From Balanoglossus misakiensis (lineage: Eukaryota > Animalia > Hemichordata), in assembly GCA_040954595.2 (NCBI GenBank), contig CM082597.2:2962265-3026264 (forward strand): DNA of 64,000 nucleotides, read 5' to 3'. Within the stretch, counting starts at the first letter, position 1; the number at the start of each line of letters is the position of its first letter. The notes under the pieces were generated by a model. That model was not told the origin of the DNA. It did not search any database and saw nothing but the letters and a program-made list of their open reading frames with translations. Below, one piece after another: positions 3,753 to 61,827 of the stretch. Position numbers and translations under genes: made by a program.

Positions 3753-5726
3753 ATGGTGAACGCATTTGTCATTACCGTATTTCTGATTTCTGCGCTTCTA
3801 ATAGGTGAGCAAATCAAAGTGCATGATTTTTCGACCTTCTCTTCCAATTTGAGGACTCAATATTTCTATAATGGGTTTTGATTCATCTCATTTATATTAT
3901 TCATTTTCAGGGATTGGTCGTTCCTGTGACGTAATAATACCATTTCCAGAGATAGCTGGCACGGCCGGTTACGATTCTATACTACACTGTTCATACACAA
4001 GTTGTTTATTCCATCATTATGACGTATATATTTATTGGTACAATGGGACAGATATAATTCTAAGAAAACGTTCTTGGGACGGAACAGTGGATACCAGTTC
4101 ACGTTACCCTGACCGCTTTTCAGTGGTCGGTGAAGCAAACCTGCTAATAAAAAATGTAACAACCGCAGACCAAAATACGTACATGTGTGAAGTTGAAGAA
4201 CGTCGGTATCATACTAGTGATTATGGAAAAGTAACATTCAACGTGACAGGTAAGTATATCTGCATGTAATAAATTAAAGATATTCACTAAGTGACCTCCT
4301 CCCTCGGCATTACGAAAAATGAATGTAGAATCCATGAGATTGTGAACATTTGCTCTTGACCTATTGAATGGGATAGGAAGCACATAGTATTAAATGAAGA
4401 TATTTTTCGTGCTGTACTTGTCTCCGATAGTAAAGATTATATTGTGCGATCACCCGTAAAGGTTTTGGTATAAATGCATGGGGTTTACCATGGCTATACA
4501 TGCATACACTCTGTATATCCGACACAATGAACCACACTGTAGCTCAATTGGAAGATTTTGGACAAAAACAAAATCTAGGAAAAATTACAAATATGTGAAA
4601 TCCAATATGTTTTTTATATTTTTCATAGAACCGTTTGCGCCAGAGGACATTTCAATGCACATCAACACATCAATGGTTGTTGAAGGAGACGATGTAAGTC
4701 TAAGATGTCAAGCAAACGGCGCACCTCCACCGAAATATGAATGGACATTGCAAGGACAACTTCCTGGATCAGGAAATAACAACTTGAACGAAGATGGGAG
4801 TCAGTTATCCATTACAAATATTCAAAGATATGAAAGTGGTAACTACGAATGCGTCGCCATCAATGGAGAAGGGACATTAATGACGTCATTAACTGTAGAC
4901 GTATATTGTAGGTCAATATTCCTCTCTCCACATTTCTCATCTTTAGATTGAATGGTGGTTAATTGTACACATCCTAGTTGTCTCCCAGAGGAAATGGGCC
5001 AAAACTAACACATTGTCTTGACATACCTAACATTACTATGCGAGCGTTCGTTTACGGAGTACAGGTATCCCTATCACGTGCAGTTGCATAAGTGTGTGTA
5101 CAAGTGATATATGATAATTCTTGCTTTCTTTCTTTCTCTCGTTTCTTGCTTTCTCACCTGCTTCCCCAACCCCTTCCTCACTCCCTCCCCTCAGACCCAC
5201 CTGATGAAAACTGGCCAAAATGTGGGATACTTGTGTCTACTAACGAGGAGTACATGAAGGAGGGTGACGACGCCGAACTGGTTTGTAACGCAACGGACGG
5301 CAAACCTACTCCTGAGTTACAATGGTACAAAGGCAGTTCACTCCTGGAAGGCGTTGATTCCCAAATCGGTTTGGTGACCAGGAACACATTTAGATGGGTT
5401 TTGACGTCACATGACAATGGTGCTGAGTTTCGCTGCCATGGATTTCATGACGTCACAGGGGTTTCCCGGGAGTGTATGATCACGTCACTAGACGTGAAAT
5501 GTAAGTATCATCCTTCCATCCTGGTTGTGTGTGGTATTGACTTTCATAACTCAGGGTGATTTTACTGTGTGGTATTTGCTCACCTCGGATACGCCACAGC
5601 ATAGTTGAGATGTATGGTGTAAATGAACCTAAGCCAACGCCTATTCTCAATTCCTGCGCACCCTACTAGCATATGTAATTCTTTTCGGCAAATCAAAGTG
5701 TGTTATATACCGGTACATGTATTTCT

Positions 5727-5759
<33 letters not shown>

Positions 5760-8700
5760 CCTGCCTTTATCTGTATATCTCTGTTTATATACAACACGAT
5801 TACAGACATTCCCGACTCCCCCATGTGCAGTGACGTGACATCTATAATTTACCAGGAGGGCGAGATGGCCACAGTGACGTGTGAATCTGAAGACGGGAAT
5901 CCACGTGCAAAATTACGCTGGCTAAATTCCACTGACCTCCTGAGTGAAACTGATCCACCGTACCAAACTGACGCCGCTGTGAACAATTACAGCTGGAGAG
6001 TTTCGCGAGCAGACAACCGTGGAAGTTTTCACTGCAAAGCAACGAACCTAGTCCAGCATAACCCTCTTACGTGCAACACTGGTGTTTTTAAAGTCTTATG
6101 TAAGTCACAATGATAAACAGCAAATTATTGTACTTCTACCATTCAAGTCATTGGCCAGGTTGTTTCCACACCACCACATGTTAATGGATAATATTAGCTT
6201 ACTTATGGCTTTATGTGGGTTAGTTCTAAACCGTTGCTTTCATTTACATCATATTATGCTTAGTTCCTGCGAGAGAAGCCATGCTTGCTGGGTATACTGG
6301 TCCACTGAAAGTTGGTGACCACATGGTCTTCACCTGTACAACCGGGACAAGCAACCCACAGGCTGAAATCACTTGGTTCCAAAACGGCAACGTTATTGAA
6401 GGAAGTGGTGACGAAAACATCGGCGAGGAAAGAACCCAAGATGGTGATTTTCATGGATTGGTGACCGCACAAAATCTAACTATTGGTCTTTTGCCTTCAC
6501 ATAACGGTGTTATTTATCACTGCAGAGCTAATAGTGGTGGACCGACTTCGGCTGTTTCACATTATGAGAAAATTGAAGTTTACTGTGAGTATTTCTCAAA
6601 TATGCGCTGTTGACATCTACGATAGTATACATACACACACACATGTAAGAATCTAGCCTTCACTTTGTCTGTCTGTCCCCTACCCCCTTCTCTCACCAGT
6701 TCCACCAAATCAACCCGAACAATGTCAGACTAGCATCGTTGGATACATCAACCCCATACTTGAAGGCGAGACTCTCACACTCACTTGCCGTTCGTGCAGT
6801 GCCAACCCTGTCGCAGTGATCACGTGGTTCAAGGCCAATGTCAACATCACATCAGGCGTCGACGCAACTGAGTATTCGGATGGGCATTACAATGGCAAAT
6901 TGTCGACGTCGCGTTTCAGTGAAACGGTGGCCTTTACCGATCACAAGGCAGAATACAGATGTGAAGCTGCTAACCACGTTCATTTTCCAGACAAGTATTA
7001 TCCATCCCAAACTTTGACGATACACGTCTATTGTAAGTACAGTAAATGTCATTTGTCTTATGTTAGCAATTAGATATGTTATTTAGAACAAGATATGCCT
7101 GTCTTGCTCGTCACTCATGTGAAACTTTTTTCCCATACGATGACATAACCACATTATGGCAATACTGTTGTTTCATAAAACACCTCATTTGATCAAATTT
7201 TAGTTTACTGTGGTCTTTTCCTATACATAGATGCACCCCGGATGTTTGGTGACGCCAATACAACAACGGTACATTCAGGGAAAACCGCCATGCTTGTCTG
7301 CAATGTCAACAGCAATCCCCGCTCAGTGGTCACGTGGTATGACCAAAATGGCCTTGCTATCACCAACGTCACCAGTGGTTATTTGATAATAGAGGAATGG
7401 CAAGATGCCAGTACATCCACCCGCAGTTATCTCAACATCAACGCCGTCACTGTGGACAACATCGGGAACTACACATGCCAGGCCAATAACGTGGTGGGAG
7501 AGACCGTACTTGTCATACCGGTCGACGTTACTGCCATTGGTAAGTTATGGCACCAGTATCTTGTGCACTTTTACTGGCTGGAAAACAATAATTGTTTTTC
7601 GTTCGTTGCACAGTACTGGTGAACAACAATTTCCAATGTTATTGCTAAGGCAACTTTTTGTAACTGATCAACTAACCATAGTGTTTTAACTTAATTTAGG
7701 AAACGCCCTACCAATCGTTGCAATGTCACTATCACTAGGAGGTGGCGTTTTACTGTTAGTCTTACTACCAGTGATAATTGTCTTATACAGGAGAAGGAGA
7801 AAAAAGACACCTGAGGCTAAAGGTTAGGAATTACAAATACCGAAGGTGGTGGTGGTGGTGGTGGTGATGATGATGATTTACTATTAGTATAATTGTTATT
7901 AATTCCAAATTTTTTCTTTTGACAGATGTACAGAATGAAGATGGGTAAGTATACGTAACATTATATTCTAAGCCAGTACAGCTTTCTGCGATCTTTAACC
8001 TTTTCCTTATAAACTATACAGAACCTTGTTTAAATCTTTTAAACATTTATAATGTATATTTGTGTGTAGATCAATTTACGTAGGTCTTACTAGGACAGAC
8101 GAAGGGGATTATATTAAACTTCACTTTCCTGGTAGCAATACAGGTATGTAGTAATTTCTACGGGACCACTTTCACAATCCTTGTATGTTTACGCAACAGA
8201 ACCATTCTCTCTGAAGTAGCCAATACATTCTGCAAGTTTTAATTGTTTCTTAATATCATCTTCGGATTTGTCGCCTTTCTTAAAATTGGTCGCTTGCTAT
8301 AGTGTTATGCAATACTCTTTCTCACGACAGAAACCAGTGATGGTGAAGTAAATCCCATGGGTGAGGTAAGAGAATATATCTGACTAGACAGCATCTGATT
8401 TTCAAGACTGCGAATATGTGCTCAGAACCAAACACGCAAGTTGCCTGCAGATATGCAAATTTGAGATATATTCTAGAAAATTGAGATATGTTCTTGAAGA
8501 CATAATTCTCTTAAACATCATTTAGCAAAGTTGCCATCACAACTATGATATAGCAATGTTCAGACTACCACTTAGCACAAAACACTAGCATTTAAATTTA
8601 AATGATGCAGTGATAGACAGGACTGACATAATTGCATTACATCCCACCAGGTGACCGAACAACAGGTCAGTGGTATTGACCTGTCTGACGAGATAAAACT

Positions 8701-10886
8701 CGATACGCTGACGATTATCGGTAATCTATCAACGGGACTGTTTACAAAGCTAGTCAAAGGGGAATTACCGTTGACAGAGAGAAGTAGACTTGTCGTCAGT
8801 GTGAAAATTCTAAATGACAAAGGTAAGAAAATGAGTTGCAGATAGTGTATGATAGAAAAAGTACATAAGTGTGTGTTTGACGTGTTTTCTACCTGTAATG
8901 TCAGTGTATCTTTTTAATGCCCATGATGTGTAGGGACACTTTTGAAATGCCTTTGAAGTCAGACTATATTTGTTCACCTCTAATGCTTGCAGTCGGAAAT
9001 ATCAAGAGGTGATTTGGATGCCTTGGTTGTATAGGTACTCTTTTGAAGTGAAGGGGCACTTTTTATAACTTTGTTTCATTGGCAGGTGTGGACGGGAGTG
9101 ATGTGGATAAATTTCTTTTGGATGAAATACGCTTTGTGAAGACACTACCAGAACACGAGAATATAGTGAAGCTGCTACGATGTGCCTCTTTGGAGGGTAA
9201 ATGCTGAATTGTACCATAATTACAACTGGCTCAACATCTATATAATTTTTGTTGATAATCCTAAAGGGATTAGGAGTGCAATGAAAATTCGAATGGACAA
9301 GAGAGAGAGAGAAAAATCTAATATTTTTCATCATCACAACCCATGAGCCCTCTCCCATTGCATTTGAAATGTATTATCTGGTGATCACTAAATTCAGTCA
9401 ATCGTTATATCGTTGGAACTAGAGATTATATTGGCCAATAATGATGTCACGGTATATCCATAGTGACTTGAATCACTGTTTAGACTAATTTTACTTCCAT
9501 GTATGGTTTATTTCAGCCCCGCACTGTATTGTGTATGAATATTGCCCCTACGGTACCCTGAAGGAATACCTTGGCGAGATGCGAGTTGAAGCAGAGAGAG
9601 TTGACTTGGAGGAAATAGAGGAAGAGACATTCAACAAGCTATGTACATTTGCCCTACACGTGGCCAATGGTATGGCATACCTGGAAGAAATACAGGTGAG
9701 ACAAACTCACAATCTTTTGATTTGTACATGACTGAATTCATCCCAACAATGGAAATGTTAAGATACAATCTGGTTTTATTTGCAGTGTGTTCATCGAGCC
9801 CTTACCGCCAGAACTGTTCAGGTGGGACAGAATTACGTCTGCAAGGTGTCAGAGTTCAGCTACTGTTCCACGGTCATGGACATGGGCACTTATCTCAATG
9901 TGATGGAGGTACGTTGCTTGTATACTGAACATGTGCATATAAAAATTGTTAGTCAATCTTCCTTCAATTTCCTTGTCTCTGTCAGTGATGCATCGATGTC
10001 ACTGTCACCTACATGTACTGTATGTGATGTTGCTGTCGCCTTTCTTTCTTAGCGACGTCTCCCATTACGTTGGATGCCACTAGAGTCCATTGAAAGGTGC
10101 ATATACTCGAGCAAGACGGACGTCTGGGCCTACGGTGTTGTATTGTGGGAAATATTCAGTTTTGGTAAGTGAGGGGAGAATTGAGACCGTTTTCCTTTTC
10201 GACCAAAAGAGCAGTCAAATAATATGATCCACTATACAGTGTTGTTTTGTAGGAAAGCTGAATAGGTACACAGTTAAAACCACTGATGTTTATGCTAATC
10301 ACAATATCAAAGACCTGTTTCTTCATTCTATCTGCAAGTATCATCATACATATGCAATTTCAAACTATAACCGGAGTCTTGATTTTGAATTAAGGGGACA
10401 AGCCTTACCCAAACATGTCACCGAAGGATGTTATAACCGAACTCAAGAAAGGTTACAGGATGCCCAAAGCAAAACACTCGGACGAGACCATGTAAATATT
10501 ATCATATATAGGCCTAAGTTAACTGTTTGAGTCCACATCATGTTAATTAAGGAACAGTATGAGCAATAATTAGTGTATATTTCAGCCAATCGCGTACAGT
10601 AACAAAATCTGGACCATGTGAGTCGTGTAATTTGTTGGTTTACTTTTAAAACAATATACTGTGATTATCGTCAAGGAAACCTGAAAGTCACAATAGCAAT
10701 AACGATTAACGCTAGCCATTATAAAAATGCTGCAATGATGAATGAGGCCAAACTATCACAATTTACAGTTATAAACATTGAATTCATTCTAGTGATCGTG
10801 TTATGGAAGAATGCTGGTTGGATGATCCGGAAAACAGGCCGTCATTTCAGGACATAGCAGCTTCAATTAACACTAGTCTACCGTGA
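3753..10886 (+). CDS. Ig-superfamily receptor tyrosine pseudokinase: signal peptide, 7 Ig domains (V-set plus I/C2-type), TM, juxtamembrane ITAM, degenerate kinase
   Basis: Exons: 3753-3804 ([18 protein letters not shown]); Ig exons 3911-4249, 4629-4907, 5195-5500, 5806-6099, 6264-6584, 6700-7032, 7231-7539 (all phase 1, C...W...YxC pattern); TM 7700-7822 ([32 protein letters not shown]); 7926-7944, 8070-8143, 8331-8365; kinase 8651-8822, 9086-9196, 9517-9695, 9786-9908, 10053-10164, 10395-10491, 10793-10886 (stop). Kinase motifs read NLSTGLFT / VSVK / HRALTART / EFS. Confidence 0.9.
8077..8121 (+). other. Encoded ITAM (YVGL-x7-YIKL) in the juxtamembrane segment of the pseudokinase receptor
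   Basis: Spliced translation [24 protein letters not shown] matches YxxL-x(6-8)-YxxL with acidic residues upstream of each Tyr. Confidence 0.8.
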
Positions 10887-12266
10887 CACAAAGGTAGGGG
10901 GAGGGGCAACTTCATAAGAGACTGGGCTGGAATGATTACACTGATCAGCACTCAGCTTGTGTTGTGCTGTACTCGACGGAGGGTCGCTGTACTGTAGATG
11001 TGTACAAACAGGGATCTTAACATGGGCTCGGTAAAATGACATTTGTAGACAAATTTTTGTCACCATAAATATTCACTCAGTGTCATTCCTAACTAATTAT
11101 TAAGGATCGATGTTATTGATTTCTTTACAGGGACTTGTCACTTTTGTGACTGGTGCGGTTAGCTGAGATGGGGGACTATCTACCAAACAGCTCATTTATC
11201 TTTCCTCATAATCCGTAGCTGACAAGGTCGTCTGCATTTGCCGTGGTGTTTGATTGGACGTTGTTGGCCCTACAAATAATAATTTTCACACGCTATTTAG
11301 ACCTAGTATAACAATACATTTAAATAGCCAACATGTGTTTTTTTTTTCATATCATGGAAAATAGTTGTTTCAACATTTAATTTGTTCACCAATAATTGGT
11401 GTGTCGGGAGAATTTGAACTCTGATTTCAGTAAACATTTTTGTACTGTACTTTGAATTTACTCTGCATTTTGACTCAGAGAAGTGAAGATATATATTGTC
11501 TGTGGCCTGTTTGTGTCTACCAGTTTGCATTATAATTGTATATCCATTCCTTTGTATAGTACCGACAGCTCTAACACAACAGATCCGGGTTCATAACGCC
11601 CCTTGGATCAAGAAAGGCTGACACACTTTAAGTTGAATGAACAGTGACCTCTCGATGCTGACCTCTGGTTTTTTTTCTCGTCCATATTTCCGCGTTCCAT
11701 TTTCATTTAACCAGACGCCGACACACAGAAGACTATTGTCAGAAGACTATGACACCCTATTGTTTGTCAACGCAAATCTAGTGTCTCAAAATATTACACA
11801 CAAGAAAAGTTACATCGACAAAAGAACAGTGACCATACTTTAAGATTTATTTTTGCTATTGAAACGTTCAATAAAGATTTTTACGAGTTTCGCTATATAC
11901 GTAAAGTATTTATGGCTTATTTGGCAGCTGTTAACGACTTATGAATGTTGAAGAGTTACGTCTCAAGCACGTAAGCAGTTGAAGTTTGGGGGCCAGGCAG
12001 GCAGTGGAAAGAGTTCACCAAAAGAGGGCGTATTGGTAAGAGAAGGGTCTGACCGTAAGGCCGTAGGCCTAAGAGAAGGCCAGAAGAAGAAAAAAAAATA
12101 GGCTGACCGACAACTTTATCTATCAAATCCCTGAATAAATCCATGCTGAAAGAATGGCAGCGACACTGGCCAAGAACGTTATCGCAAAGAGTGTAGTTTT
12201 CGGTTACGACAAATGTCAAGCAAACAAACGTCCAAGGTTTCATAGCTGGACCAGGAGTATGACACC

Positions 12267-16671
<4,405 letters not shown>

Positions 16672-26282: not shown

Positions 26283-27479
26283 ATGTTGCCTCGACCATTC
26301 GCGTTCTACCTATCGATTGTCATTTTGACGGTTACAAGCGCACTTTTTCTGCTACTTACAACCAGAGACCTGTTCGTGAAGAATGACGCCAGCAACGTCC
26401 TTGCGAAGGAGTACCAAAAATTCTTGGAATCTCCGTGGCTTCCGTACGACGAACGGCGACCAAATCGCACCAAATACAAAATTCAACCCTCGGACCTTAG
26501 GAGTTTCTTTTCCAAGAGAAAGTTGAGCAGAGCTCCTGGCATGAGTATTGATAAGATATCGCGAGACTGTCTGCGTACCTTGATGGCTTTTATACACCAG
26601 GGATACACATTCGATATCAAACACGAAGACGGCGTTCTGTCCATCTGTAGGAACGTTCCCTACAATACCCTCAAATCATTAAAGGCCTACCGCTATACAA
26701 CTGCCGTCGTACCGAATATCGCCCACTACGTGTGGTTTGGCGAGCGACCCTTTCGTTTTGATCACCTCATTTCATTGCTGAGTGCTTACAAAGTCATGCG
26801 GGCTGATAGAATACTGTTTCACACGGACAGGGAACCAGGTGGCGAGTACTGGGACGAGGCACGGGGAACGATTCCCGTTCTCGAAGTCGTTCACAGAGAC
26901 CAGCCGACGAGTATTTTCGCCTACGCGATACCGAAGTCAAATTTACAACTTAAATCGCACATAGCGAGGCTGGAAGTTCTCCTGGAATACGGCGGTGTCT
27001 TCTTAGACAGTGACGTCATCGTTCTCCGGCCTCTAGAACCGCTACGTCACTACAACTTCGTCATGGGCAGCGACGACCAATCCCAACTCAGCAATGGCGT
27101 CATCATCGCGCACAACGAATCGAGGTTTTTGAAGAGGTATCACCGCGGTTTCGTGTACTACCGAGGGGCCTGCCTACACTGTAACACCGTTCTATTTCCA
27201 ACTGCCCTCGCAATCCAGTTCCCGGATGTCATCCACGTCGAGAACACATCCATTCTGTCGCCGAATGTGGCCGAAATGACGGATATTTTCCAAGGCCATT
27301 ATAACTGGTTCGACGGCCATTACACTGTGCAGACCTTCGTGGACAAGTTTTACGACTTACCTGGAAATCTTGGCCAGGAAGCCAATTACAACGCCCAGAA
27401 TATCAAAGATCTAGACACATCTTTCGGTGAAATGTGTCGATTTGTGTATTATGGCGATACAGAGTTCGGATTATCGTAG
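26283..27479 (+). CDS. Glycosyltransferase family 32 (DxD sugar-binding; A4GALT/A4GNT-related) type II membrane protein, single coding exon, 398 aa
   Basis: Uninterrupted ORF with N-terminal signal-anchor (FAFYLSIVILTVTSALFLLL), VPNIAHYVWFG, SHIARLEVLLEYGGVFLDSD (GT32 R..L..YGG.Y/FxDxD signature) and SNGVII; polypyrimidine tract plus AG acceptor just upstream (~26205-26262). Confidence 0.9.
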   Translation: MLPRPFAFYLSIVILTVTSALFLLLTTRDLFVKNDASNVLAKEYQKFLESPWLPYDERRPNRTKYKIQPSDLRSFFSKRKLSRAPGMSIDKISRDCLRTLMAFIHQGYTFDIKHEDGVLSICRNVPYNTLKSLKAYRYTTAVVPNIAHYVWFGERPFRFDHLISLLSAYKVMRADRILFHTDREPGGEYWDEARGTIPVLEVVHRDQPTSIFAYAIPKSNLQLKSHIARLEVLLEYGGVFLDSDVIVLRPLEPLRHYNFVMGSDDQSQLSNGVIIAHNESRFLKRYHRGFVYYRGACLHCNTVLFPTALAIQFPDVIHVENTSILSPNVAEMTDIFQGHYNWFDGHYTVQTFVDKFYDLPGNLGQEANYNAQNIKDLDTSFGEMCRFVYYGDTEFGLS

Positions 27480-28502: not shown

Positions 28503-31500
28503 TCACACCCACGCGGCCTCGGTTGTGGACAACTTTTCCTCTTGTTTGTATTCTGGTGAAAGGCCATGGTCTGTGTCGAGAACGTCTTCAATTGTCTACA
28601 AGAACAATAAAATAATTCTAGCTTTAGCAACAAAAATCTCCAACCGAATGTGTGTCTTGAAAGTAGCGAGATTGTCATACACGTCAACATTTACTCTGCA
28701 AGATACTCTCGTTTTTTATACACCTTATTGACCTTGCCATAGTTGTCTGTTAGTAAATTATTGTTAGTAATGAAAGTTATTGGGAAGGAAGGTTTCTATA
28801 CATAAACACAAAGTTTTGATTCAGGTTAGAGCAATGAGGGTTGCACGCAACTGCATCATGTTTTTTTTTCTATTTATTCAAAGCAAATTTGGCATTTCCA
28901 GTGGACAACAAAATACCAGAAACCATCGCAACATACCTCCTTCAGTTTTCGGAGGTGTTTCTTCGCCCGCTGTCGAATTTTCCTAAAACAGAACAGTCAC
29001 ACAACAAACACACGTTAATTTACAAGTTGCCTTCTGTTTTCTGTATCCACAGATACGTATAGTGCTGGTGGGTCAAACTGTCCACGAGGTCAAAGTTTAA
29101 AGGTCATTAGCTTAGTTTAGTGTGGTGCATTTTAATTAATTATTTATAAGGGTGCCGTGCAAGGTATAGCGAATTGAAATAAGCGCATACTAGGTAACAC
29201 AGATGCCTAGGGACTTTTGCTTCTGCGTAGTGTGATAAAATACATTGCACTTAAGAGAGACATTGTGTTTTCTGAGCTTCACTTCCACCAATGGTAAAAC
29301 CATTATCTCGCCGAAATTTATGAACAAATGTGGCTTGTTGTCAGGGTTCGATGAAAGAACAGTACAGTTGGAAATTTGGGTAGTTAGTAAATTTTAATCG
29401 GTGGAAGGGGAGGGAGGGGTCGTCGGCAATGCACATCATGGAAATGGAAATGGAAATGATATCTTTTCCCGACTTAAATATGTCCGTAGACTACATCATC
29501 TCACTCATTCCACCCACAGGCATCGATAATATACCTGTCTGTCATCTGTAAGACCCACAGCGGCGAATGATGTCACTTTACAAGACATTTTAGAGATGCA
29601 TTATTCCCCCCCCCCCTCAAATTACTCAAGAATCTCATATTTCCTTACTAAAAACAATTAAGCCAGAATGACAACACAAAAGGTGGAAGAACAATACCTT
29701 CGTCGACTTAACCTTGTTTGGCTTTGCATATATCGGCTCCATTGCTATTTCATTTGCATTTTCTTCAATCTTTTTCGTCTCGTCCACGTTGACCTCCACA
29801 CTTTTTTCCCCTTTTGTATCTGGAATAGTTGATATGAATGGTTTAGATTGTGATACAAAGCCAGGATGCATGCAGTCATAAATACATACATACATACATA
29901 CATACATACATACATACATACATACATACATACATACATACATACATACATACATACATACATACATGCATACATACATACATAATGTTAATAGACAACA
30001 AATATTTCTATACGAATACCTGTACCATCAGGCGAAGTCCTCGACACTCCATTGTTTTCAATTCCTTCGTTTTCGACTGTTGTGAACTCAGACACCAAAG
30101 TCCTGCAAAGTTCAATTCACTTTCGATTACTTATCTGTCTGAGTTGTAAAATGTCATTGCGATGGAATGTCATATAAATACCGCAAGATAGTCTGCCTGA
30201 GTTTTAGTACATACAAAAATGAGTATGCTATGTACATGTACTGCTTTGCATCTGTGTAACACAGCCGAAAGAAGTAGTGTGTACGTTCACCCCATGATTA
30301 CCACATTTACTTTGACTTACGTTTTCGTATTCTCTTCATCAGCGGCGCCTGGAACAACAGAGGTATATAAAAGCGTAATGCAGATCACTGTTAATTGTAC
30401 AATACACTACGCTATAATACAAATACTATACAGTACAGTACTTAATGGAACACATCAAATACAATACAGTACACAACCCAACAATAAACGATAACAGTTC
30501 AAGACAACACAGCAAAATACAAAACAATGCAATGCAATAAATACGAAATATAATGTAGATACATTGACACATGTTTTTACAACGACCGACAGCACAGTCC
30601 TCCACTGAAACCAAACCAAAACAACACAGCAACATCGCATCACAACTGAACTCACCTCCAGGGACGCCATCTTTTTCGGAGCGTGGTCGGCAGCAACAGA
30701 GTATAGACACAATGACGAGAACAGTTATCACCACGATGACAGCAATGGCGATTCCGGCGATGGCACCATCTTCCAGGCCAGACTTTTCTTCAGCTGTTAA
30801 GGAGCAAGTGGTAAAGTAAACCCAAGGGTATAAGATTTTAGCATTTGGAACTTGTGAACATTTGACTGTCCTTGTATACATTATCAGTTTGTTTGATTGT
30901 ACATGTACCACTTACAATGAAAATCGTTTCAACTGCACAGGTTGAATGTACTGACCACTGAAGAAACACTGTCGGGTTTTGCCATTCAATGTGACAATGG
31001 AAAGTCACATGTGGTCTGTGATGACTTACGCGGTAATTCGGCGACCTCAATACCGTGAACGTCTCGCCCGAGGTTGTTCGAAGCCTCGCACACATAAGTC
31101 CCGAACATGTCTTCGGAGACACTCGGTATCGCCAGGGTGCTGGTGACTGTGTTGCCGTCCGTCGAGTCCGAGGCTGCCATTTCCGCGCCTGACGGACTGG
31201 TCCACGTGATGGTCGGCCGTGGACTTGCATCAGCGATGCATACTAGTTCGGCTGGTGCGTTCAGAGCAACTTGTATTTTCTCGGTAGCTTTGTTGACGAT
31301 CGCCGGAGGATCTAGAAAAATAGCGAGATTGTAATTCCACCACTGTCCATACACAAGACACTATACATGTATTAAGATAGAGTAAAGCAAACCTCAAAGC
31401 ATACATAGTTTGTACAAAAACTAACGCAGTTTCACACCTGTATATATACATGTATGTACACGCAAGGGACACAGAACGCTGTGAATTCCACAATGTACAG

Positions 31501-34500
31501 TTTCTGCCAGAATATGTTTTCAACAAGAGACAAAAGATGTAGCAATTACCTCTCCCTTCTTCCCACAACCCCCCCCCCCCCCGAAACGCATTTCTTTCAA
31601 ATGTGGTTTAATGGTATACTTAAGTCACAAGGGTACGTACATTGAACAATAACATCGACCGAGGAGCTGCTAGTCTCGCTGGTGCTTCCGTCGTAAAACT
31701 GCGTCATTGCCGCGCAGCTGTAGTCGCCACTCATCCAAGACTTCACGTCTGCGACGACGTACGAGTAGATGGCGTCGCCGCTGGCCGTTCCAACCTCGAA
31801 CGTTCCGCTAGCGTTGGTCTGATGCAAGCTAATCTGGTAAGGAGCTGGGTTTCCACCAGTTGCCATGCATTCTATCGTCAATTCAGAACCTAGCGCCACT
31901 TGCTGCTGTGGTACCATGATATAAACGTCCGATGCATCTATGTCAACAAAGCACGTCAGTCAACTTAGTAAGTGGCAATCAAGTTTCTGCAAATGTATGT
32001 ATGGTCTGTCTGTCTGTCTGTCTGTCTGTACTGTGCATACATACATGCATGTCTGTCTGTACATACATGCATGTATTCATCTTTGTCCGTTTGAGTTTCC
32101 AGTATTGTGGTTGTACTTACATTCAACAACCAATTCAAGACTCTTCTCAGTCACCATCGTGGTATTATCGAACAGAAGGTTGGTCGCCATGCACGCAAAG
32201 GAACCTGCATCTGTTTTGGCGGCGTTTCCAATGGTGTAACTTGCCCCGTCGTAAATTTTCTGTCCGTCCCTATACCAGTCCACGTCGGAAGCCAATGGGT
32301 TGGCATCTACCACACAATTCAGGGTGACGAGCTCGCCTTCTTTGGCGCGTACTACATCACTGGCAAACGTGATTTCTGGACCATCTGTAGTGAAGACGCA
32401 AACATGTGATACTAATAACTAAAAACCTAGGGGTGCAATTGTATGGTGCTTTATGACAAGTCAAGGTAAAATAAGCGATACCAATATGGCATTTTCAATA
32501 TGCATCGTTATCTACTCGAGAACCAGCATAGTGATATAATAAAATTGACGTCCATATTGATAGGTCAATATGAAAAAAATCACCATCTTATTAGGTTGGC
32601 GTGAATAAACTCTAAGTGTAAGCAATGTGAAGTTGTCTAGGTGAGCATGCTTACATTGTACGTCCAGGTCCACGTCGGCACTTCCGGTTCCTTGTGAATT
32701 GTCATAGAAAGTGTTGGTAGCCATGCACGTGTGGATACCGTTGTACTCCCGGGTGACATTAGGCAATGTCTGGATTGGTACTGGTATAACAGTCCCGTCA
32801 TTGAGGTGCCACGTGATGTTGGCGGCCATCGGATTGGCTTCGAGCAGGGTACAGTTCAGTGTCAAACTATCGCCTTCCTTGATCACTGCTGCGGGCGCTG
32901 TATAGACCATAGGAGGGTCTTATGGGAGAAACCAGACTCAAACAGTCAAAATCGTGACCATCAACCAAATGAGTCAACCACATAGGAGTACTATGATATA
33001 ACCACAGCATTTATGCTAAACATAAACTTACTACCACAAGAAACGTCAATTCAAAGGTAAAATCACATCTTTCCCATCGGTTACATCATCACTGACCTGT
33101 CCATGAGGGACTGTGACCTGTCGTTCACTTGTTTGAAGTGAACTGACCAATAGCAAACAACTTAAGAAACAGCTGTAGAATGCCTAAGTAAAAAAACTTC
33201 ATTGCGCCACCATTCCATATTTTGTAGGTCTACTCCCATTCACAATAAAACTGCATATGTGATTATTTTATCCTAGACACATAACAGAAGACACTCACAT
33301 TGTACATCTAGGTCCACGTCGGCACTTCCGGTTCCGTTTGTATTATCATAGAAAGTGTTGGTAGCCATGCACGTGTGGTGACCTGTGTATATACGCGTGA
33401 CGTCATCCAATTTTTGGATTGGCCCTGATATAACAGTTCCATCGTTGAGGTGCCATGTGATGACGGCGTCCATTGGATTGGCATCGAGCAGGGTGCAATT
33501 CAGTGTCAAACTCTCGCCTTCCTTGATCGCCGCCGAGGGAGGAGTATAGACCAATGGCTCGTCTGTTGAACAAGTATGTCAAGTTTAATGGACGCCCGAC
33601 TTAAATTTGTCTTCCTAATCCCCAGGATGGTCATCCCTTTCCATTGTTAAATAAATCCTTACATCATGACCACATGCCCGGCCCCCTTTTTTTATTGTAA
33701 ATGAGATACATATTGTGATGATCTGGAAATTGGTCTTTTACATATCGTTTGTTACTAAACAGGAAACTTAAATGTCTCTCTCTATGATACACAAACAAGG
33801 AAACTGAAACATTGTCACAAATGAAGGCACCGTCTCTCGAAGTAATTATTCACACTTACATTGTACATCCAGGTCCACGTTGGCACTTCCCGTTCCGTTT
33901 GTATTATCATAGAAGGTGTTGGTAGCCATACACGTGTGGATACCGTTATACTCCCGCGTGACATTAGGCAATGTCTGGATTGGTCCTGGTATAACAGCAC
34001 CGTCATTGAGGTGCCACGTGATGTCGCCTGTCATCGGATTGGCTTCGAGCAGTGTACAGTTCAGTGTCAAACTATCACCTTCTTTGATCACTGCTTCGGG
34101 TGCTGTATAGACCATAGGAGGGTCTTATGGGAGAGAACCAGATATACAATGTTTATGTGTGACACAAATCGTGTAGATGGCGGTCATTAACCAAATGATT
34201 CAACCACGTGGGTAACTACCACAAGGATCGACAGTTTAACATTAAATCATATAATTTCCATGGGTTATATCATTATCACACGTTTTGTATACATGTTTGA
34301 AGAGTGGCATTGACAAGATACCTGACCAGTCACAAACTACTTATAAAACCGCTTTGGGGCCCCAAATATTACATTGGACCACATTCTGCATTTTACTGTC
34401 ATTTATAAATTGCAGACAAAATTGAGAATGTGATTATTTTTATCAAAGATACATGACAGAATGCTGTGTGCTCGGTTTGGTCCTCGTGTATAACGGGTCT

Positions 34501-37500
34501 CAGATACAAATTATGCACTCACATTGTACATCCAGGTCCACGACGGCACTTCCGGTTCCGTTTGTATTATCATAGAAAGTGTTGGTAGCCATACACGTGT
34601 GGAGACCTGTGTATATACGCGAGACGTCATCCAACATCTGGATTGGTCTTGGTATAACAGTTCCGTCATTGAGGTGCCAATTGATGTTGGCGGTCATCGG
34701 ATTGGCTTCGAGGAGGGTACAGTTCAGTGTCAAACTATCGCCTTCCTTGATGATTGCTGCGGGCGCTGTAACGACGACTGGCTCATCTGTGGACAAAGTG
34801 TGTCAAGTTTAATGCATGTCCGGTTTTGTCTTTTTTACCCCCAAGGTGATCACCCCTTACCACTGCGCAATGCATTAATTGTTCCCATATGATCGCATGC
34901 CTAGGGCCAATTTAGATCTTGAATGTTATACATGGAGTGATGAAATCTGAAATTTGGTCGTTATCAAATCGTTTGTCAGCAATTGGAAACAGGTAACGTA
35001 ATGTCTCTGATACAAAAAACAAAACACAGGAAAATTGTCACAAATGAAAGCATCGTCTCTAGACTGCATATAAATGAAGATGGAGGCAATTATTCATACT
35101 TACATTGTACATCTAGGTCCACGTCGGCACTTCCAGTTCCGTTTGTATTATCATAGAAAGTGTTGGTTGCCATACACGTGTGGAGACCTGTGTATATACG
35201 TGTGACGCCATCCAATGTCTGGATTGGCCCTGGTATAACAGTTCCATCGTTGAGATGCCAGGAGATGTCGGCGTCCATAGGGTTGGCATCCAGCAGGGTG
35301 CAATTCAGTGTCAAACTCTCGCCTTCTTTGATCACTGCCTCGGGCGCTGTATAGACTTCTGGCTCGTCTGTTGACAAACGTTTCAAGTTCAGTCGACGTG
35401 AGTTTGTGTCTATGATCAGTTCGGTCTCCAAAAACGTATCAACTAGCTACCCCCCATGTAATATGATGGCATTGCATACCGAGTCGACAGTAAAGACAAT
35501 GATATGAAAACCCTGCACTTACATTGTACATCAACCATGATGGCATCCATTTGAGAAACACTACTACCATCCCAGAATTCACTGCTAGCTTGGCAAGTAT
35601 AGTTTCCGGTGTCTGCCCTAGTGGTACTGTCAATATGCAACAGGCTGCCCTCAACGTTCCCATCAGTTGTCATCCACATGAACGCCGGAGTCGGGTTCCC
35701 GTTGGCCATGCACGTGGCGTTGTATGAGTTTCCCTCGATGACCTTGCCACCGCTATCTCGACCTTCTTCAATCGTGACCCCGTCCAAATCTGTAAGTGTT
35801 ATGGATTAAACAAAACAAGAGATTGGATACTGAGGAGGAATAATTGGCCACTATAAGTAGCACAGGGAACAACCGACAAATAAAAAAATATACGAAGGCC
35901 TGCAGCCAAACTCAGATACTCAATCCGCAATCATTATTTAGAAATACTGAAGCTTTACTACAAATATACAATGTCGTTTGGGGCCTCTGCAACATCTACC
36001 ATTAAAGTGGAGGCAAGAAGCAACAAACTCACACTGAACATCCATTGTGACCATTGCACTTCCGGTGCCTGTTCTACCATCATAAAACGTGTTATTAGCG
36101 CTGCACATGTAAACGCCCGCATCCTCCCTTCCGATGCTGGCAAACTCCAGCGTCTCGCTGTTTTCTACAATGGCGCCATCTTCGTCCGACCAAGCAATGG
36201 CGTCCACGTCTGGATAAGCTTCATCCACGTGGCAAGTTGCAGTCACCATTTTTCCTTCAATTGCTGTGCCGTTAGCATGAGCTTCGCCATCAACGATGGC
36301 AGAAACAACTGGTCTATCTAAAAACAGTAAAGAAAATCGAAATTTGATGACAAGATAGAATACAATGCAGTACATCAGTGTCATTGGGAAAAATTATAAG
36401 CTCACTTACATTGTACAATAATTGCAATTTCTTCTTCACAAGTCAACAATGCTGACTGCTCTTCGCTGAGGGACCGGTGTTCTAATCTGCAATCAAACTT
36501 GGTACCATTCTCGGTCTTGTCGAGAGTTGTGGTGAGGGTGTTTATCATTCCGGTCACCCTCTGCAACTCAACGCCGTTCTTATACCAAACCAAATCGCCA
36601 AATGATGACAGCATACACTCAAGAGTGATCTCCTCGTCTACAATCGTTGTGTAGCCAGGTTGTACGCTGCACTCTGGTCCATTTTCTATGCGGGTAAACA
36701 CATGGTTACATTAATTCAACTGAGAAATGGTGTAGTGTTATTTAATGTTTCCACGTGTGAGATCGCTTCTTAGTTTTGAATAGTGTTCTAGGAAGTGATG
36801 ACAAAGAGCAAAGAGATGAGTAACACTGGTAGCTTAGGATAAGAGTGACGAAGAGTACTTCGGACCTTTAACTGTCTAACCTTTTTAATAATACAAGTAA
36901 GTGTCATGTTCTTACCGATTACAGAGAGGTTGGCTTTGGCGGAAATTGATGAGTCGAAGAAGTCCTCACACGAGTAGAGATCAGACAGATCCGGTGTCGC
37001 TCTCAACAGTTTCAAGTGAAACTCATACTGGGTGTCGTCACCAACAATTTCGTAGACGTCACTATCGTCCGCGTTGCGATCCAGGGATATCCTAGTAGTT
37101 CCTTTCATCCACACCACCGGCGAGGGCGCATTCACGAAAGAGCAGTTGAGCTGGACAGAGTCGTTAGTGTAGGCAAACGTGTCAATAGGTCGCTCCTTGA
37201 AAACATCTTGGGTGGCTATTTTTTGAAAGAACAGACAGATAAAATGTTATAAGCAAAAATCTATGCACAAGAAATACGTGGAAGTGAAAGTTGAGTGAAA
37301 GTCAATCTTCTCGAGACTGAAAGTGGAAGCCACTTGATATTAAATTTATCGACCTTGGTCGTTCACAGTTGATTACACAGTTTTAATGTAGGCTGGTGTG
37401 TTTTAAAGGGATGAAGGTTAGTGTAGAATCCAAACTCGTGTGGACTTTTTCGCTATGGTCCACACATGTTGAGCGTAACGAAAAACACACGCGGGTCTGG

Positions 37501-45000: not shown

Positions 45001-45497
45001 GGCGGTATCAAACTTCCATGGAAACAGGCAAACGAACAGACAGCCATCAAGAGGTAGATGACAGAACGACGCGCTAACGGCTGAATAGTACATGTACAAA
45101 TATAGACAGACAGACAGACAGACAGGCGGACTGACAGACAGATGGAAATACTACTAATAATACATGTAATTTCAAATTTCAGATTGGGATAGCGTTACTG
45201 TTCAAGACAAAAGTGGCCACAAAGTTATCGAAGGACAAACCTACCACGCTAACTGCACAGCGTCATCCAACCCTGCAGCAGGCATCTTCTGGGTGTTTCT
45301 AAATGGCGTGATAAAGTTCGGCCCAGATGTGGTTGTGAGAAATGTCACACGCGGTAGTCAAGACGCGCTCCAAATCACTTGTATTGCAGGAAATCAATTC
45401 TGGGACGGAACAAGAAACAATGGACACGTCATAATAAATCTAGATGTCCAATGTGAGTATTCTAGTACGGATGGGATGCTGCTGATGATTATAGCGT

Positions 45498-45568
<71 letters not shown>

Positions 45569-60300: not shown

Positions 60301-61827
60301 CCACCATGCTGGATACCAGTATTCATATAATGTGGTTTTGTAACATAAACCATCTAATCATACAAGATACAAAATGGATTACGTGACTTCAATCATTGCA
60401 CGTGAACATAGTGCAATGGAGAAAGTCCTTTCTCGCCGAGGGTATAATGCTTATTGCCTTGCCCAAACAAAACTTTTGGCAACTTTAAACTTTTGAAATT
60501 TCGACCACTAGGCTAGACTGTGTGTGGAGTATAGCGAAACAACACACACGAGTTGGATTCTAGACTAGTTAGATAATAATATCACTCACTTAATACAATC
60601 AGCTGTGCGACAGCTGTAGGCGGAGGCGACAAATATGGTATCCTACATTGGTAGATATGCTGGAAGTCCATCGTTGCATTCTCAATGTACATGTTGTATT
60701 CACCCTCATCGTGATTTCCAAGTACACCATACTTTTTATCGAAAGGAATATTGCCACGTATGATTTCATGATCTTCGGAATTTTTACGTCTATACCATGA
60801 TAGTGGTACAAGAAGGTTCTCAGCACTGCAATTTAGCTGTGTGTTGTGTCCTTCCAGAACCAGTGTATCTACAGGGACTTCCGTGAAGCGTGGGTCTGCT
60901 AGTGAACCTACATAAACATACGATACAAAAATACAATGTAATGTTTAGATATCAAGTTTAGAGTATTATAATTAACGATGAACACGCTTCGTGCGTAAAA
61001 AAGATAAAATTAAAATCTGATAGTTACTGTTTCGTCACAGAGGATGACTCGCATATCACTTCCCTCTTTTGTGAAAAAGAGTCAATAAAAGTTGAGGAAA
61101 CAATTCAGTTTCAATACCGAACATGACGTCATTACCCACAAAAAGAAGAAAACTAAAATATACAATAATAACAACCTCAAGTCCGCCAGTCAGTGTTAAC
61201 GTCAGCTTTCATTAAAATTTACTCGAGCGCACTATGTAAAGAGTGCCTGTTAACATAAACGTCGACGAAGATGCAAAAGTTCGTGACCTCTCATTCTGCC
61301 AAGTTATGGCGAGATTGGATTTCACTGAACGAATCAGTCTGCAAGACATTCGCTATGTCAGTAACTTCGCACATATAATCGACTGTGTATGTAAGTGTGT
61401 GCTCTACTTAAAGTACAACGACTTCGAGTTAAATAACAGTCTCCATTCAAACATGCTCGAGGAATGGTACGGTGGTGCTTTTCAATTTTACACTCAGTAC
61501 AACCACTTTCACCAACAGTGAATCTTCAGCAAAAATAGTTAATCTGCGTTACACGACTCTAGCAAAGGGGAAAATTACATGTACGTACACGTCAAGAAGA
61601 AATTGAAAGTTCCATATTGTGCTTCATTCGCCCTATGTCAATTACAATGATGAGGGATTTCTCTCTGCTATAAATTAAGCACAGTCCAAGACCCTGCTTT
61701 GCACTCTCTTGTGTTGTATAGAAAGATGAACATTTTCAATGTTTGCGTGCATCACCACCCACTTACCGGCAATGATGAGATTCACCAACAGCAAGTTGTA
61801 GCAGAGTCGCTGCAAAACGTGCCTCAT
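51340..61827 (-). CDS. Type I membrane Ig-superfamily receptor C: signal peptide, 12 Ig domains, TM, cytoplasmic tail; C-terminus depends on splicing
   Basis: Signal exon 61827-61767 ([21 protein letters not shown]|gtaagt); V exon 60907-60590 (absent from the ORF track: [41 protein letters not shown]); Ig exons approx. 59938-59652, 59526-59244, 58739-58473, 58099-57815, 57362-57092, 56891-56606, 56286-56022, 55340-55076, 54810-54547, 54154-53848, 53630-53346; TM 53030-52865 ([25 protein letters not shown]); tail 52526-52499, 52181-52087, (51737-51638), 51425-51340. Confidence 0.88.
57662..57780. repeat. (AACC/AAAC)n microsatellite, intronic
   Basis: Direct reading. Confidence 0.85.
58886..59195. 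mobile_element. Palindromic non-autonomous interspersed repeat in an intron of receptor C
   Basis: 58886-59028 is a ~143-bp imperfect hairpin: AGCAATAAAACACCCCCAGCCATGGTATA..GATTTTGACCAGTTCA..CATATACGCAC / GTGCGTATATG..TGAACTGGTCAAAATC..TATACCATGGCTGGGGGTGTTTTATTGCT. A related GTGGTATATGGCTAATATATCAC motif follows at ~59106. Confidence 0.7.

Follow-up and report, generated by a model that had tools for sequence, protein, structure and literature searches.

Can a receptor whose kinase is predicted to be dead still signal through an ITAM located in its own juxtamembrane (JM) region? This question is raised by a gene of Balanoglossus misakiensis, referred to as gene 2, in a 64-kb window (the whole stretch of 64,000 nucleotides analysed here). 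Syk-family kinases predate adaptive immunity and, to our knowledge, few ITAM-containing upstream receptors are known outside vertebrates, among them the oyster receptor CgIgR, Draper and, as candidates, the Hydractinia Alr proteins. As judged from titles and abstract openings, no paper was found that describes an ITAM in the JM region of a receptor tyrosine kinase (RTK) or a receptor pseudokinase. The existence of ancient ITAM-containing upstream receptors has been argued for (PMC5978004, available part).

Gene 2 was modelled as 19 exons on the (+) strand (3753-10886; Table 1), which are predictions from splice signals, reading frame and similarity to a paralog. The reading frame is open from the ATG at 3753 to the TGA at 10884-10886 and encodes 1123 aa, arranged as a signal peptide, seven Ig exons, a TM segment, three tiny JM exons and a kinase domain. 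Pfam Ig families were identified in all seven ectodomain exons, and the topology inferred from the signal peptide and the Ig ectodomain would place the JM region in the cytoplasm. Within Ig exon 2, haplotype differences are clustered at positions 4717-4769.

Table 1. Predicted exons of gene 2 and features of the adjacent paralog gene 3 (positions refer to the window).
Feature	Position	Strand	Basis
Gene 2 exon 1, ATG and hydrophobic signal-peptide-like start	3753..3804	+	In frame to 3911, no stop; donor 7/9 consensus
Gene 2 Ig exon 1, V-set-like	3911..4249	+	Pfam V-set E 1.7e-07; splice sites
Gene 2 Ig exon 2	4629..4907	+	Pfam Ig_3 E 2.8e-18, also I-set
Gene 2 Ig exon 3	5195..5500	+	Pfam C2-set_2 E 9.1e-09
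Gene 2 Ig exon 4	5806..6099	+	Pfam C2-set_2 E 7.8e-08
Gene 2 Ig exon 5	6264..6584	+	Pfam C2-set_2 E 4.3e-09
Gene 2 Ig exon 6	6700..7032	+	Pfam Ig_3 E 1.8e-09
Gene 2 Ig exon 7	7231..7539	+	Pfam Ig_3 E 8.1e-14, also I-set
Gene 2 TM exon, stop-transfer RRRRKK at end	7700..7822	+	Translation; both ends phase 1
Gene 2 19-nt JM micro-exon, DVQNED	7926..7944	+	Acceptor 12/15 pyrimidines; donor 7/9
Gene 2 74-nt JM exon, ITAM-like pair	8070..8143	+	AG before; donor CAG/GTATGT 8/9
Gene 2 35-nt JM exon	8331..8365	+	Alone joins TM exon to first kinase exon in frame
Gene 2 kinase exon K1, degenerate glycine loop, VSVK lysine retained	8651..8822	+	Without Pfam match
Gene 2 kinase exon K2, alpha-C region, Glu retained	9086..9196	+	Model, alignment
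Gene 2 kinase exon K3	9517..9695	+	Pfam PK_Tyr_Ser-Thr E 6.2e-08
Gene 2 kinase exon K4, HRA, TART, EFS for HRD, AARN, DFG	9786..9908	+	Translation, alignment
Gene 2 kinase exon K5, conserved C-lobe segment	10053..10164	+	Pfam E 8.9e-14; alignment
Gene 2 kinase exon K6	10395..10491	+	Splice sites, translation, Pfam
Gene 2 kinase exon K7, including stop codon	10793..10886	+	Translation
Gene 3 short ectodomain stub and TM exon	12627..12809	+	Translation
Gene 3 JM exon a, contains NEYAEE	13199..13265	+	Translation
Gene 3 JM exon b, EYTKL, 12 residues, YMGL	13413..13500	+	Translation, alignment
Gene 3 kinase exons K1-K5, G-loop and DFG intact	13848..15507	+	Exon sizes parallel those of gene 2

An earlier note on this locus had described the host of the motif as an RTK-type receptor with a dead kinase. 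This description holds: the sequence retains neither the catalytic Asp nor the Asn of the catalytic loop nor the Asp of DFG, and alignment with the neighbouring gene 3 places HRA, TART and EFS at the positions of HRD, AARN and DFG. The glycine loop is degenerate, and the VAVK-type Lys and the alpha-C Glu are retained. Based on the three replacements, the gene 2 kinase domain is predicted to be a catalytically dead pseudokinase. The assignment to the RTKs follows from a tyrosine-kinase fold after the TM segment, identified by PF07714 and by PDB matches to RTK kinase domains. Matches to PK_Tyr_Ser-Thr (PF07714) were obtained for five of the seven kinase exons, with only K3 and K5 above the curated cut-off, and the two N-lobe exons had no Pfam match. 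The best PDB matches of K3 and K5 were FLT3, CSF1R, KIT, VEGFR1, MuSK and TIE2, and the top matches of K3 included the insulin receptor besides FLT3, CSF1R and KIT. A word-index protein search with K3 of gene 2 alone yielded nothing among 6 candidates, and the same type of search with K1 of gene 3 returned only two arthropod RET entries (E 2.5e-3 and 8e-3). The tree places the gene 2 kinase in a group with proteins of Ptychodera and Saccoglossus in which the Asp of HRD is missing too (support 97/93 and 100/99). Judged from this grouping, gene 2 is an old, retained receptor pseudokinase of a hemichordate clade and not a decaying copy. The proteins nearest to it are hemichordate entries annotated as “Cad96Ca-like” and “FGFR-like.”

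The same note had reported a YxxL-x7-YxxL motif on a small exon of its own, preceded by an acidic NED. The motif is confirmed in the sequence: predicted exon 8070-8143, which is bounded by AG and GT (GTATGT follows) and is in frame with the 19-exon model, encodes YVGL (8077-8088, Tyr795), seven residues and YIKL (8110-8121, Tyr806). Its frame is set by the upstream exons, and the 19-nt exon 7926-7944 is required to place it in the ITAM frame. The NED is present as well and is supplied by this preceding exon (DVQNED). Acidic residues are found ahead of both tyrosines, with NEDGSI before Tyr795 and TDEGD before Tyr806, and the pair is located 20 residues past the RRRRKK of the predicted TM exon. 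Its spacing agrees with an ITAM distance of 6-8 residues as well as with the wider definitions of 6-9 or 6-12 residues. In the available parts of two sources, the ITAM is printed as Yxx[I/L]x(6-9)Yxx[L/I] (PMC9546547) and as D/ExxYxxL/I x(6-12) YxxL/I (PMC6994640), and the ITIM as [I/L/V/S]xYxx[I/V/L] (PMC9546547). SIYVGL fits the ITIM pattern and GDYIKL does not, a pattern match that says nothing on function.

The chance frequency of the pair was determined with a strict ITAM pattern, defined as Y..[LI].{6,8}Y..[LI]. When the 75-aa JM region of gene 2 was shuffled, 0.09% of the resulting sequences contained this pattern; it appeared in 0.7% of random sequences of JM length with the composition of the gene 2 protein and in 3.7% of random sequences matched in length to the entire cytoplasmic part. 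Six-frame translation of the 64-kb window gave 10 matches, the gene 2 pair included. For the individual motif types, [DE]Y.KL was matched twice in the full six-frame translation (128,000 codons), both times in JM exons, those of genes 2 and 3, and two of the four matches of [IVL]Y[VMIL]G[LIV] were likewise located in JM exons of these two genes. ITAM-pattern matches are also produced by the E-F strands of Ig domains, as observed in the Saccoglossus protein P0161 and, under the wide pattern, in the seventh Ig domain of gene 2 itself.

The 19-nt and 74-nt JM exons add up to 93 nt and form a frame-neutral cassette, so that frame logic does not force the inclusion of 7926-7944 and 8070-8143; the TM exon followed by 8331-8365 and K1 stays in frame without them. 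Under lax splice thresholds, 46 alternative frame-compatible chains were obtained, one of which takes an acceptor at 8094 and thereby loses the first YxxL. All three JM exons are flanked by good splice signals and, among the top-ranked chains, a hydrophilic and acidic JM region is found only in the three-exon chain. As a predicted coding exon, 8070-8143 is plausible.

Comparison with relatives was based on a small set with partial gene models, whose JM regions were taken as annotated. That ITAMs are not a standard feature of RTK JM regions is borne out among the related kinases retrieved, in which such a pair is unusual: none of the 15 relatives that cover the TM, JM and G-loop segments contains the ITAM pattern. 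Among 41 TM-JM-kinase relatives, 26 have no YxxL/I motif in the JM region, 14 have one and a single protein has two. The earlier note had proposed conservation of both YxxL motifs and of their spacing as a check, and this fails on the spacing: the pair of gene 3 is reversed and separated by 12 residues, the relatives are without the 7-residue spacing and, among the compared sequences, this spacing is found in gene 2 only. The closest relative with JM sequence, P0163 of Ptychodera, has no JM Tyr pair as annotated, and the same applies to the JM regions annotated for P0088 and P0113 of the pseudokinase clade; P0140 is without an N-terminal part. In Saccoglossus P0161 and P0172/P0086, EYQDL or EYEDL is followed, after nine residues, by YMKY or YMKH directly before the kinase, and this second site is not a YxxL/I motif. 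Two further pattern matches were rejected. One, the only strict match close to the kinase in a near relative, is situated in P0161, where the first half of the strict match belongs to the E-F strand of a truncated Ig domain and the second half alone is juxtamembrane; the other, in P0028, lies in a hydrophobic stretch outside the JM region.

Gene 3, the adjacent paralog with an active-type kinase, holds both motif types of gene 2 in its JM region (EYTKL and IYMGL), in reversed order and 12 residues apart, and its pair qualifies as an ITAM under the x(6-12) definition. At the protein level, the JM regions of the two genes give two equal-scoring local alignments, one pairing IYVGL with IYMGL and the other, collinear one pairing YIKL with YTKL. 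Compared as DNA, their JM exons show no significant alignment, as the observed score is reached in 19% of codon shuffles.

Since the motif types recur in the JM region of gene 3 and a similar pair exists in Saccoglossus, the gene 2 pair appears to consist of ordinary family JM tyrosines that stand at ITAM distance. It is best read as a JM docking cassette that would derive from the JM tyrosines of the family and happens to have ITAM geometry. That the two YxxL motifs serve as phosphotyrosine docking sites on a seven-Ig receptor pseudokinase and are phosphorylated in trans is the interpretation that we tentatively favour, at somewhat less than an even chance. As the gene 2 kinase is predicted to be unable to phosphorylate its own tail, another kinase would have to do so. 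This might be one of the Src type or an active RTK that acts as partner, and gene 3 with its intact kinase and almost no ectodomain would be an obvious candidate for such a partner. The phosphorylated pair would then recruit SH2 proteins; the seven-residue spacing would permit a tandem-SH2 reader of the Syk/Shark type, and single-SH2 readers would fit equally well. Coupling of the pair to Syk or Shark is a possible, and the ITAM as signalling output of a dead-kinase receptor a hypothetical, feature of gene 2. Of the earlier interpretation as a whole, the RTK-type host with a dead kinase and the unusual nature of the pair among related JM regions stand, and the conserved spacing does not.

A true ITAM, at which phosphorylation by a Src-type kinase and tandem-SH2 binding of Syk/Shark would replace the lost catalytic output, is unlikely. 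The pair matches the ITAM patterns as printed in the available parts of PMC9546547 and PMC6994640 and has acidic residues before both tyrosines, its host kinase is predicted to be dead, oyster Ig-domain receptors with an ITAM of their own bind Syk (PMC6994640, available part) and the gene 3 pair also qualifies under x(6-12). However, the 7-residue spacing is restricted to gene 2, with 12 residues and reversed order in gene 3 and nine residues and a second site other than YxxL/I in Saccoglossus, the relatives from the pseudokinase clade are without the pair, and the first motif, SIYVGL, agrees just as well with the ITIM pattern (as given in the available part of PMC9546547). No direct statement on Syk in hemichordates was found in the available text of the literature searched. 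More doubtful still is the far-reaching scenario of an ex-RTK hemichordate receptor that has lost catalysis and whose built-in ITAM would couple a polymorphic seven-Ig ectodomain directly to Syk/Shark.

The pair might also be without function or expression, either because two JM tyrosines left over in a lineage-specific receptor that evolves fast came to stand at this distance by chance or because the cassette is not included in the main mRNA. We regard this as improbable to the same degree as a true ITAM. The good splice signals around all three JM exons, the hydrophilic and acidic character that only the three-exon JM region shows among the top-ranked chains, the synonymous nature of the single haplotype difference in the exon and the presence of both motif types in the JM region of the neighbour, with hardly any match in the rest of the 128,000 translated codons, argue against it, although the 93 nt can be skipped in frame, many alternative chains exist and P0163 resembles a form without the cassette. 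Likewise in its favour, random tails of this length contain the pattern in 3.7% of cases, nine other matches occur in the six frames of the window, and Ig E-F strands give matches as well (P0161, and Ig7 of gene 2 under the wide pattern). Very unlikely is an inhibitory motif, with SIYVGL as an ITIM that, together with the second YxxL, would recruit an SHP-type tandem-SH2 phosphatase and make the pseudokinase a dampening co-receptor. SIYVGL does match the ITIM definition (PMC9546547, available part), but the second motif, GDYIKL, misses it, as does the gene 3 counterpart EIYMGL with its Glu at -2. A dead-kinase receptor that titrates or dampens its active neighbour would be mechanistically plausible. 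Against an inhibitory function, the known sites of tandem-SH2 phosphatases are usually spaced much more widely than seven residues.

Several known systems resemble gene 2 in part. The receptor pseudokinases PTK7/CCK4 combine seven Ig domains with an inactive kinase, and gene 2 likewise has seven Ig-like domains, a TM segment and a catalytically degenerate tyrosine-kinase domain. Orthology to PTK7, considered for this architecture, was rejected on the tree and on the PDB matches: no PTK7 chain was among the best 60 PDB matches of K3 or K5 (single-exon queries), and the nearest proteins are the hemichordate Cad96Ca-like and FGFR-like entries; the PTK7-like architecture of gene 2 therefore looks convergent. 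ErbB3, an RTK with an impaired kinase, relies on an active partner to phosphorylate its tyrosines. A similar logic may apply here, where a dead kinase with docking tyrosines adjoins the active-kinase gene 3 with almost no ectodomain, which suggests a division of labour. Unlike in ErbB proteins, with which homology is limited to the kinase fold, the docking tyrosines of gene 2 are juxtamembrane and not C-terminal, and the partnership is purely inferred. Class III/V RTKs (KIT, FLT3, CSF1R) carry juxtamembrane tyrosines, and gene 3 and the Saccoglossus proteins P0161 and P0172 similarly have tyrosine pairs a short way ahead of the WEFPR-type kinase start. In gene 2, by contrast, the kinase-proximal site has lost its Tyr (GEVNPMGE), and the remaining pair is located nearer to the membrane, at ITAM distance.

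Among ITAM-bearing receptors of invertebrates, Drosophila Draper has an EGF-type ectodomain and an ITAM that is read by Shark. It parallels gene 2 as a receptor, although of non-immunoglobulin type, that combines an ITAM with a tandem-SH2 kinase, where gene 2 has a predicted pair; it differs in its ectodomain, its wider spacing and the lack of a kinase-like domain. Oyster CgIgR consists of five Ig domains, a TM segment and a cytoplasmic ITAM that binds CgSyk (PMC6994640, available part). Like gene 2, it is an invertebrate multi-Ig single-pass receptor with its own acidic YxxL-spacer-YxxL in the cytoplasmic part. As described in that portion of the source, however, the CgIgR tail is plain, without a kinase-like domain, and the binding of its ITAM to Syk was demonstrated experimentally, whereas the predicted gene 2 pair follows the membrane segment and precedes a pseudokinase domain. 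The Hydractinia Alr family is a cluster of genes for IgSF receptors whose divergent tails contain ITAMs or ITIMs (PMC9546547, available part). It resembles gene 2 in its polymorphic cluster of Ig-receptor genes and in cytoplasmic parts that evolve fast and carry short tyrosine motifs; the Alr proteins, as described there, are without a kinase domain.

If real, an ITAM-geometry pair in a receptor pseudokinase would represent one route from an RTK to an immunoreceptor-like docking receptor and would provide a hemichordate Syk or Shark with a testable partner. Gene 2 would, if the ITAM were true, represent a living intermediate stage from receptor tyrosine kinase to ITAM-type immunoreceptor and a candidate member of those ITAM receptors, so far unknown, that act upstream of Syk in invertebrates. 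Should the tyrosines merely be ordinary JM docking sites, the locus would still be a tidy example of an old, retained hemichordate receptor pseudokinase clade, possibly with a ligand-binding pseudokinase and an ectodomain-less active kinase as neighbours.

Haplotype differences in gene 2 were read from DNA contigs of one sample. The sole difference in exon 8070-8143 (8076 T>A) is synonymous, as are all three differences in K1, so that 4/4 differences in the cytoplasmic exons of the fully listed stretch are synonymous. In the Ig exons, 10 non-synonymous versus 6 synonymous differences are among those listed (40 of 195 gene-wide). This distribution fits a constrained cytoplasmic part. The SNP density of the fully listed stretch points the other way, being no lower for exons, with 10 SNPs within 423 nt, than for introns, with 19 within ~726 nt. 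Three more multi-Ig TM genes are located in the 64-kb window.

The predicted exon at 8070-8143 (+), which has AG directly 5' and GTATGT directly 3', is translated in the frame of the upstream exon as (G)[24 protein letters not shown] and contains the tyrosine pair YVGL (8077-8088) and YIKL (8110-8121), separated by a spacer of 7 residues. The acidic stretch ahead of it, DVQNED, is encoded by the immediately preceding 19-nt exon (7926-7944). The earlier note had read this exon as YxxL-x7-YxxL preceded by NED, and this observation is confirmed; its interpretation, in which an ITAM may serve as the signalling output of an RTK-type receptor with a dead kinase, is partly supported. A 19-exon model of this receptor gene (gene 2), built by scanning for AG/GT sites around open frames, yields a predicted coding sequence of 3372 nt (1123 aa) without internal stop, in which the pair tyrosines are Tyr795 and Tyr806. 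All seven Ig exons match Ig families in Pfam.

Predicted features of gene 2 and of its surroundings in the window (JM, juxtamembrane; TM, transmembrane)
Feature	Position	Strand	Details
Gene 2 exon 1	3753-3804	+	ATG, hydrophobic start
Gene 2 Ig exons (n=7)	between exon 1 and TM exon	+	one domain each, all phase 1
Gene 2 TM exon	7700-7822	+	RRRRKK at its end
Gene 2 JM exons (n=3)	third, 8331-8365	+	19, 74 and 35 nt
Gene 2 kinase exons (n=7)	stop codon 10884-10886	+	stop codon closes last exon
Gene 3	12627-~16300	+	kinase exon pattern same as gene 2
Glycosyltransferase gene	26283-27479	+	single exon, 398 aa, DXD, Pfam Gly_transf_sug
Multi-Ig genes (n=3), large	30400-37250	-	one domain per exon; TM exons
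	42700-47600	+	one domain per exon; TM exons, e.g. 47321-47582
	53300-60950	-	one domain per exon; TM exons
Microsatellites	7837-7889; 45480-45570; 29700-29900		tri-/tetranucleotide

In alignments with relatives and with gene 3, the adjacent paralog, the gene 2 kinase exhibits HRA for HRD, TART for AARN and EFS for DFG as well as a degenerate glycine loop, while the VAVK-type lysine and the alpha-C glutamate are retained. PK_Tyr_Ser-Thr was clearly matched in Pfam at the third and fifth kinase exons (K3 and K5), and the two N-lobe exons gave no Pfam match. The motif losses and the Pfam pattern therefore make the dead kinase proposed by the earlier note a sound prediction. Relatives were collected with a profile in which the conserved K5 exons of the window's three kinase genes were combined; it retrieved 22,344 proteins at E <= 0.001, and the best 150 of these were examined. 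Local BLAST together with a maximum-likelihood phylogeny based on 22 kinase domains placed gene 2 with the Ptychodera proteins P0163 and P0140 (support 97/93), rising to 100/99 once Saccoglossus P0088 and P0113 were included; gene 3 clusters only weakly, with a starfish RTK. The HRD aspartate is absent in all four hemichordate relatives of gene 2 and the DFG aspartate in three of them. Judged from this grouping and these losses, gene 2 is therefore a member of an old, retained pseudokinase clade. The annotation names of these relatives and of Saccoglossus P0161 are “FGFR-like” and “Cad96Ca-like”; the HRD aspartate is replaced by Q in P0163, P0140 and P0161, by S in P0088 and by A in P0113, and in most of them the DFG aspartate is substituted too. 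A well-supported clade unites four of these five proteins with gene 2 and appears to represent a hemichordate receptor pseudokinase family of which no description was seen.

Gene 3 shares 36.6% identity with gene 2 (78/213 positions) and has similar kinase exon sizes (178/111/188/123/112 nt vs 172/111/179/123/112 nt), with an intact G-loop, [12 protein letters not shown] and DFG. Its JM region is split between a 67-nt and an 88-nt exon, both needed for the frame, and the latter encodes EYTKL, 12 residues and then YMGL. Among the ~128,000 translated codons of the window, [DE]Y.KL occurs twice, in the JM exons of genes 2 and 3, and two of the four occurrences of [IVL]Y[VMIL]G[LIV] lie in the same exons; this near-exclusive occurrence argues that the two motif types are shared and not accidental. 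Their order and spacing differ. A collinear alignment places YIKL of gene 2 with YTKL of gene 3 and leaves IYMGL of gene 3 opposite the tyrosine-less GEVNPMGE of gene 2, a local alignment of equal score pairs IYVGL with IYMGL, and DNA alignment of the JM exons revealed no significant similarity. The earlier note had looked to paralogs for conservation of both motifs and their spacing: in gene 3 the motifs recur, but their spacing is 12 rather than 7 residues.

The region of gene 3 (11110-16300, +) has all catalytic motifs intact and an ectodomain that is apparently almost absent; with a candidate first exon at 11110-11152, ~16 extracellular residues would precede the TM segment. It lies 2 kb 3' of gene 2 and in the same orientation. 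The near-absence of an ectodomain and this closeness suggest that a ligand-binding pseudokinase might work with an active kinase. A similarly short N-terminus is found in Ptychodera P0095. A third RTK gene (gene 1) contributes its 3' end with conserved C-lobe exons (1-~800, +); in the K5 exon gene 2 shares 65% identity with it, vs 54% with gene 3, and the JM region of gene 1 lies beyond the window.

Outside the window, P0163 as annotated has ~25 residues between a stop-transfer-like stretch and the kinase, lacks a tyrosine pair and looks like a cassette-less form. No tyrosine pair was found in the annotated JM regions of P0088 and P0113, and P0140 lacks its N-terminus. Saccoglossus P0161 and P0172/P0086, which fall outside the pseudokinase clade of gene 2, carry EYQDL or EYEDL, 9 residues and YMKY or YMKH directly ahead of the kinase, an arrangement similar to that of gene 3. 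Neither the strict ITAM pattern (Y..[LI].{6,8}Y..[LI]) nor a wider one occurred in any of the 15 TM-JM-G-loop proteins among all retrieved relatives, and YxxL/I counts across 41 TM-JM-kinase instances were none in 26, one in 14 and two in one. As the gene models are incomplete and annotation readily overlooks micro-exons, this absence is weak evidence. Strict-pattern matches in two of 197 kinase-upstream windows were both artefacts.

Splice signals are reasonable at all three JM exons, AG 8068-8069 is the first AG and lies upstream of an alternative acceptor at 8094, and the three-exon chain encodes a hydrophilic and acidic JM, whereas most alternative chains are hydrophobic nonsense. DNA contigs of a second haplotype differ from 8070-8143 at one position (8076, synonymous) and from the next intron at nine. 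On the other side, lax splice thresholds allow 46 frame-compatible chains, overall SNP density in the fully listed stretch is similar, with 10 SNPs across 423 nt of exon and 19 across ~726 nt of intron, and the TM exon, 8331-8365 and K1 stay in frame without the 19- and 74-nt exons, which are consequently a frame-neutral cassette of 93 nt. Given this mixed evidence, use of 8070-8143 as an exon stays a prediction. Shuffling the 75-aa JM, whose only tyrosines are these two, yields the strict pattern in 0.09% of cases; it also appears in 0.7% of random JM-length sequences of the protein's composition, in 3.7% of those matching the length of the whole cytoplasmic part, and ten times, this pair included, when the window is translated in all six frames. 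The pair is thus unlikely in one tail, yet within the yield of scanning many receptor tails. Ig E-F strand regions can also fit ITAM regular expressions (Y..L/I, spacer, Y..L/I), for example in Ig exon 7 of gene 2 (aa ~674-693) and in P0161 (residues ~150-165), and are a source of false matches in ITAM scans of truncated gene models.

The leading reading, held tentatively, is that the pair represents a JM phosphotyrosine docking cassette derived from the JM tyrosines of the family. Its tyrosines would be phosphorylated in trans because the gene 2 kinase is predicted to be dead, with a Src-type kinase and a catalytically active partner RTK as candidates. Gene 3, with its intact kinase and predicted ectodomain of ~16 residues, would be an attractive candidate, a pairing that we infer from adjacency and complementarity only. 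PTK7, ErbB3 and the JM tyrosines of class III RTKs are comparison systems, as is Draper-Shark among invertebrates. A true ITAM recruiting Syk or Shark and a motif that is non-functional or unexpressed are both rather unlikely, and an ITIM-like phosphatase site is more unlikely still. The tyrosine pair itself is a pattern match of 15 residues, lies in a predicted exon and has a spacing that is not conserved. According to the respective papers, the oyster receptor CgIgR combines five Ig domains with a tail ITAM binding CgSyk (PMC6994640), clustered IgSF receptors of the Hydractinia Alr genes carry ITAMs or ITIMs, with the pattern definitions printed (PMC9546547), and Syk and Shark homologs are reported from sponge, Hydra and amphioxus (PMC13344425). 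A further study reports that invertebrate Syk/Zap70 homologs co-occur with Bcl10, whose holders include hemichordates, and CARD-CC, from which its authors infer ancient ITAM-bearing upstream receptors (PMC5978004). None of the papers found by a literature search, judged by titles and abstract openings, describes an ITAM located in the JM region of an RTK or pseudokinase. Two known kinds, Ig receptors with ITAM-like motifs on the one hand and receptor pseudokinases that carry docking tyrosines on the other, would be joined here, and this unusual combination provides a concrete hypothesis for hemichordate Syk/Shark signalling.

Second-haplotype DNA contigs also revealed that, in the fully listed stretch, all four differences in cytoplasmic exons are synonymous; the TM exon shows three synonymous and three conservative non-synonymous ones. 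Among the differences listed for the Ig exons, at least 10 are non-synonymous and at least six synonymous. This tentatively suggests a variable ectodomain above a constrained cytoplasmic part. Within ~50 nt of Ig exon 2 (4717-4769), eight single-base differences, five of them non-synonymous, and a 3-nt insertion occur, which may mark a hotspot where ectodomain polymorphism or gene conversion is concentrated.

No kinase motifs turned up in the three multi-Ig genes, whose domains each show a recurring F/Y-W/Y-D-G motif near their end; Ig domains of this type also make up the ectodomain of the kinase-bearing Saccoglossus proteins P0161 and P0172. All ten database matches of the glycosyltransferase are hemichordate (Glandiceps, Saccoglossus, Ptychodera; 37-50% identity), which makes the source animal a probable hemichordate that is not close to these three. 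The microsatellites comprise (GGT)n/(GAT)n, at which the DNA-run contigs break, in the intron that follows the TM exon, an extended (ATG)n stretch and a (TATG/TGTA)n repeat.
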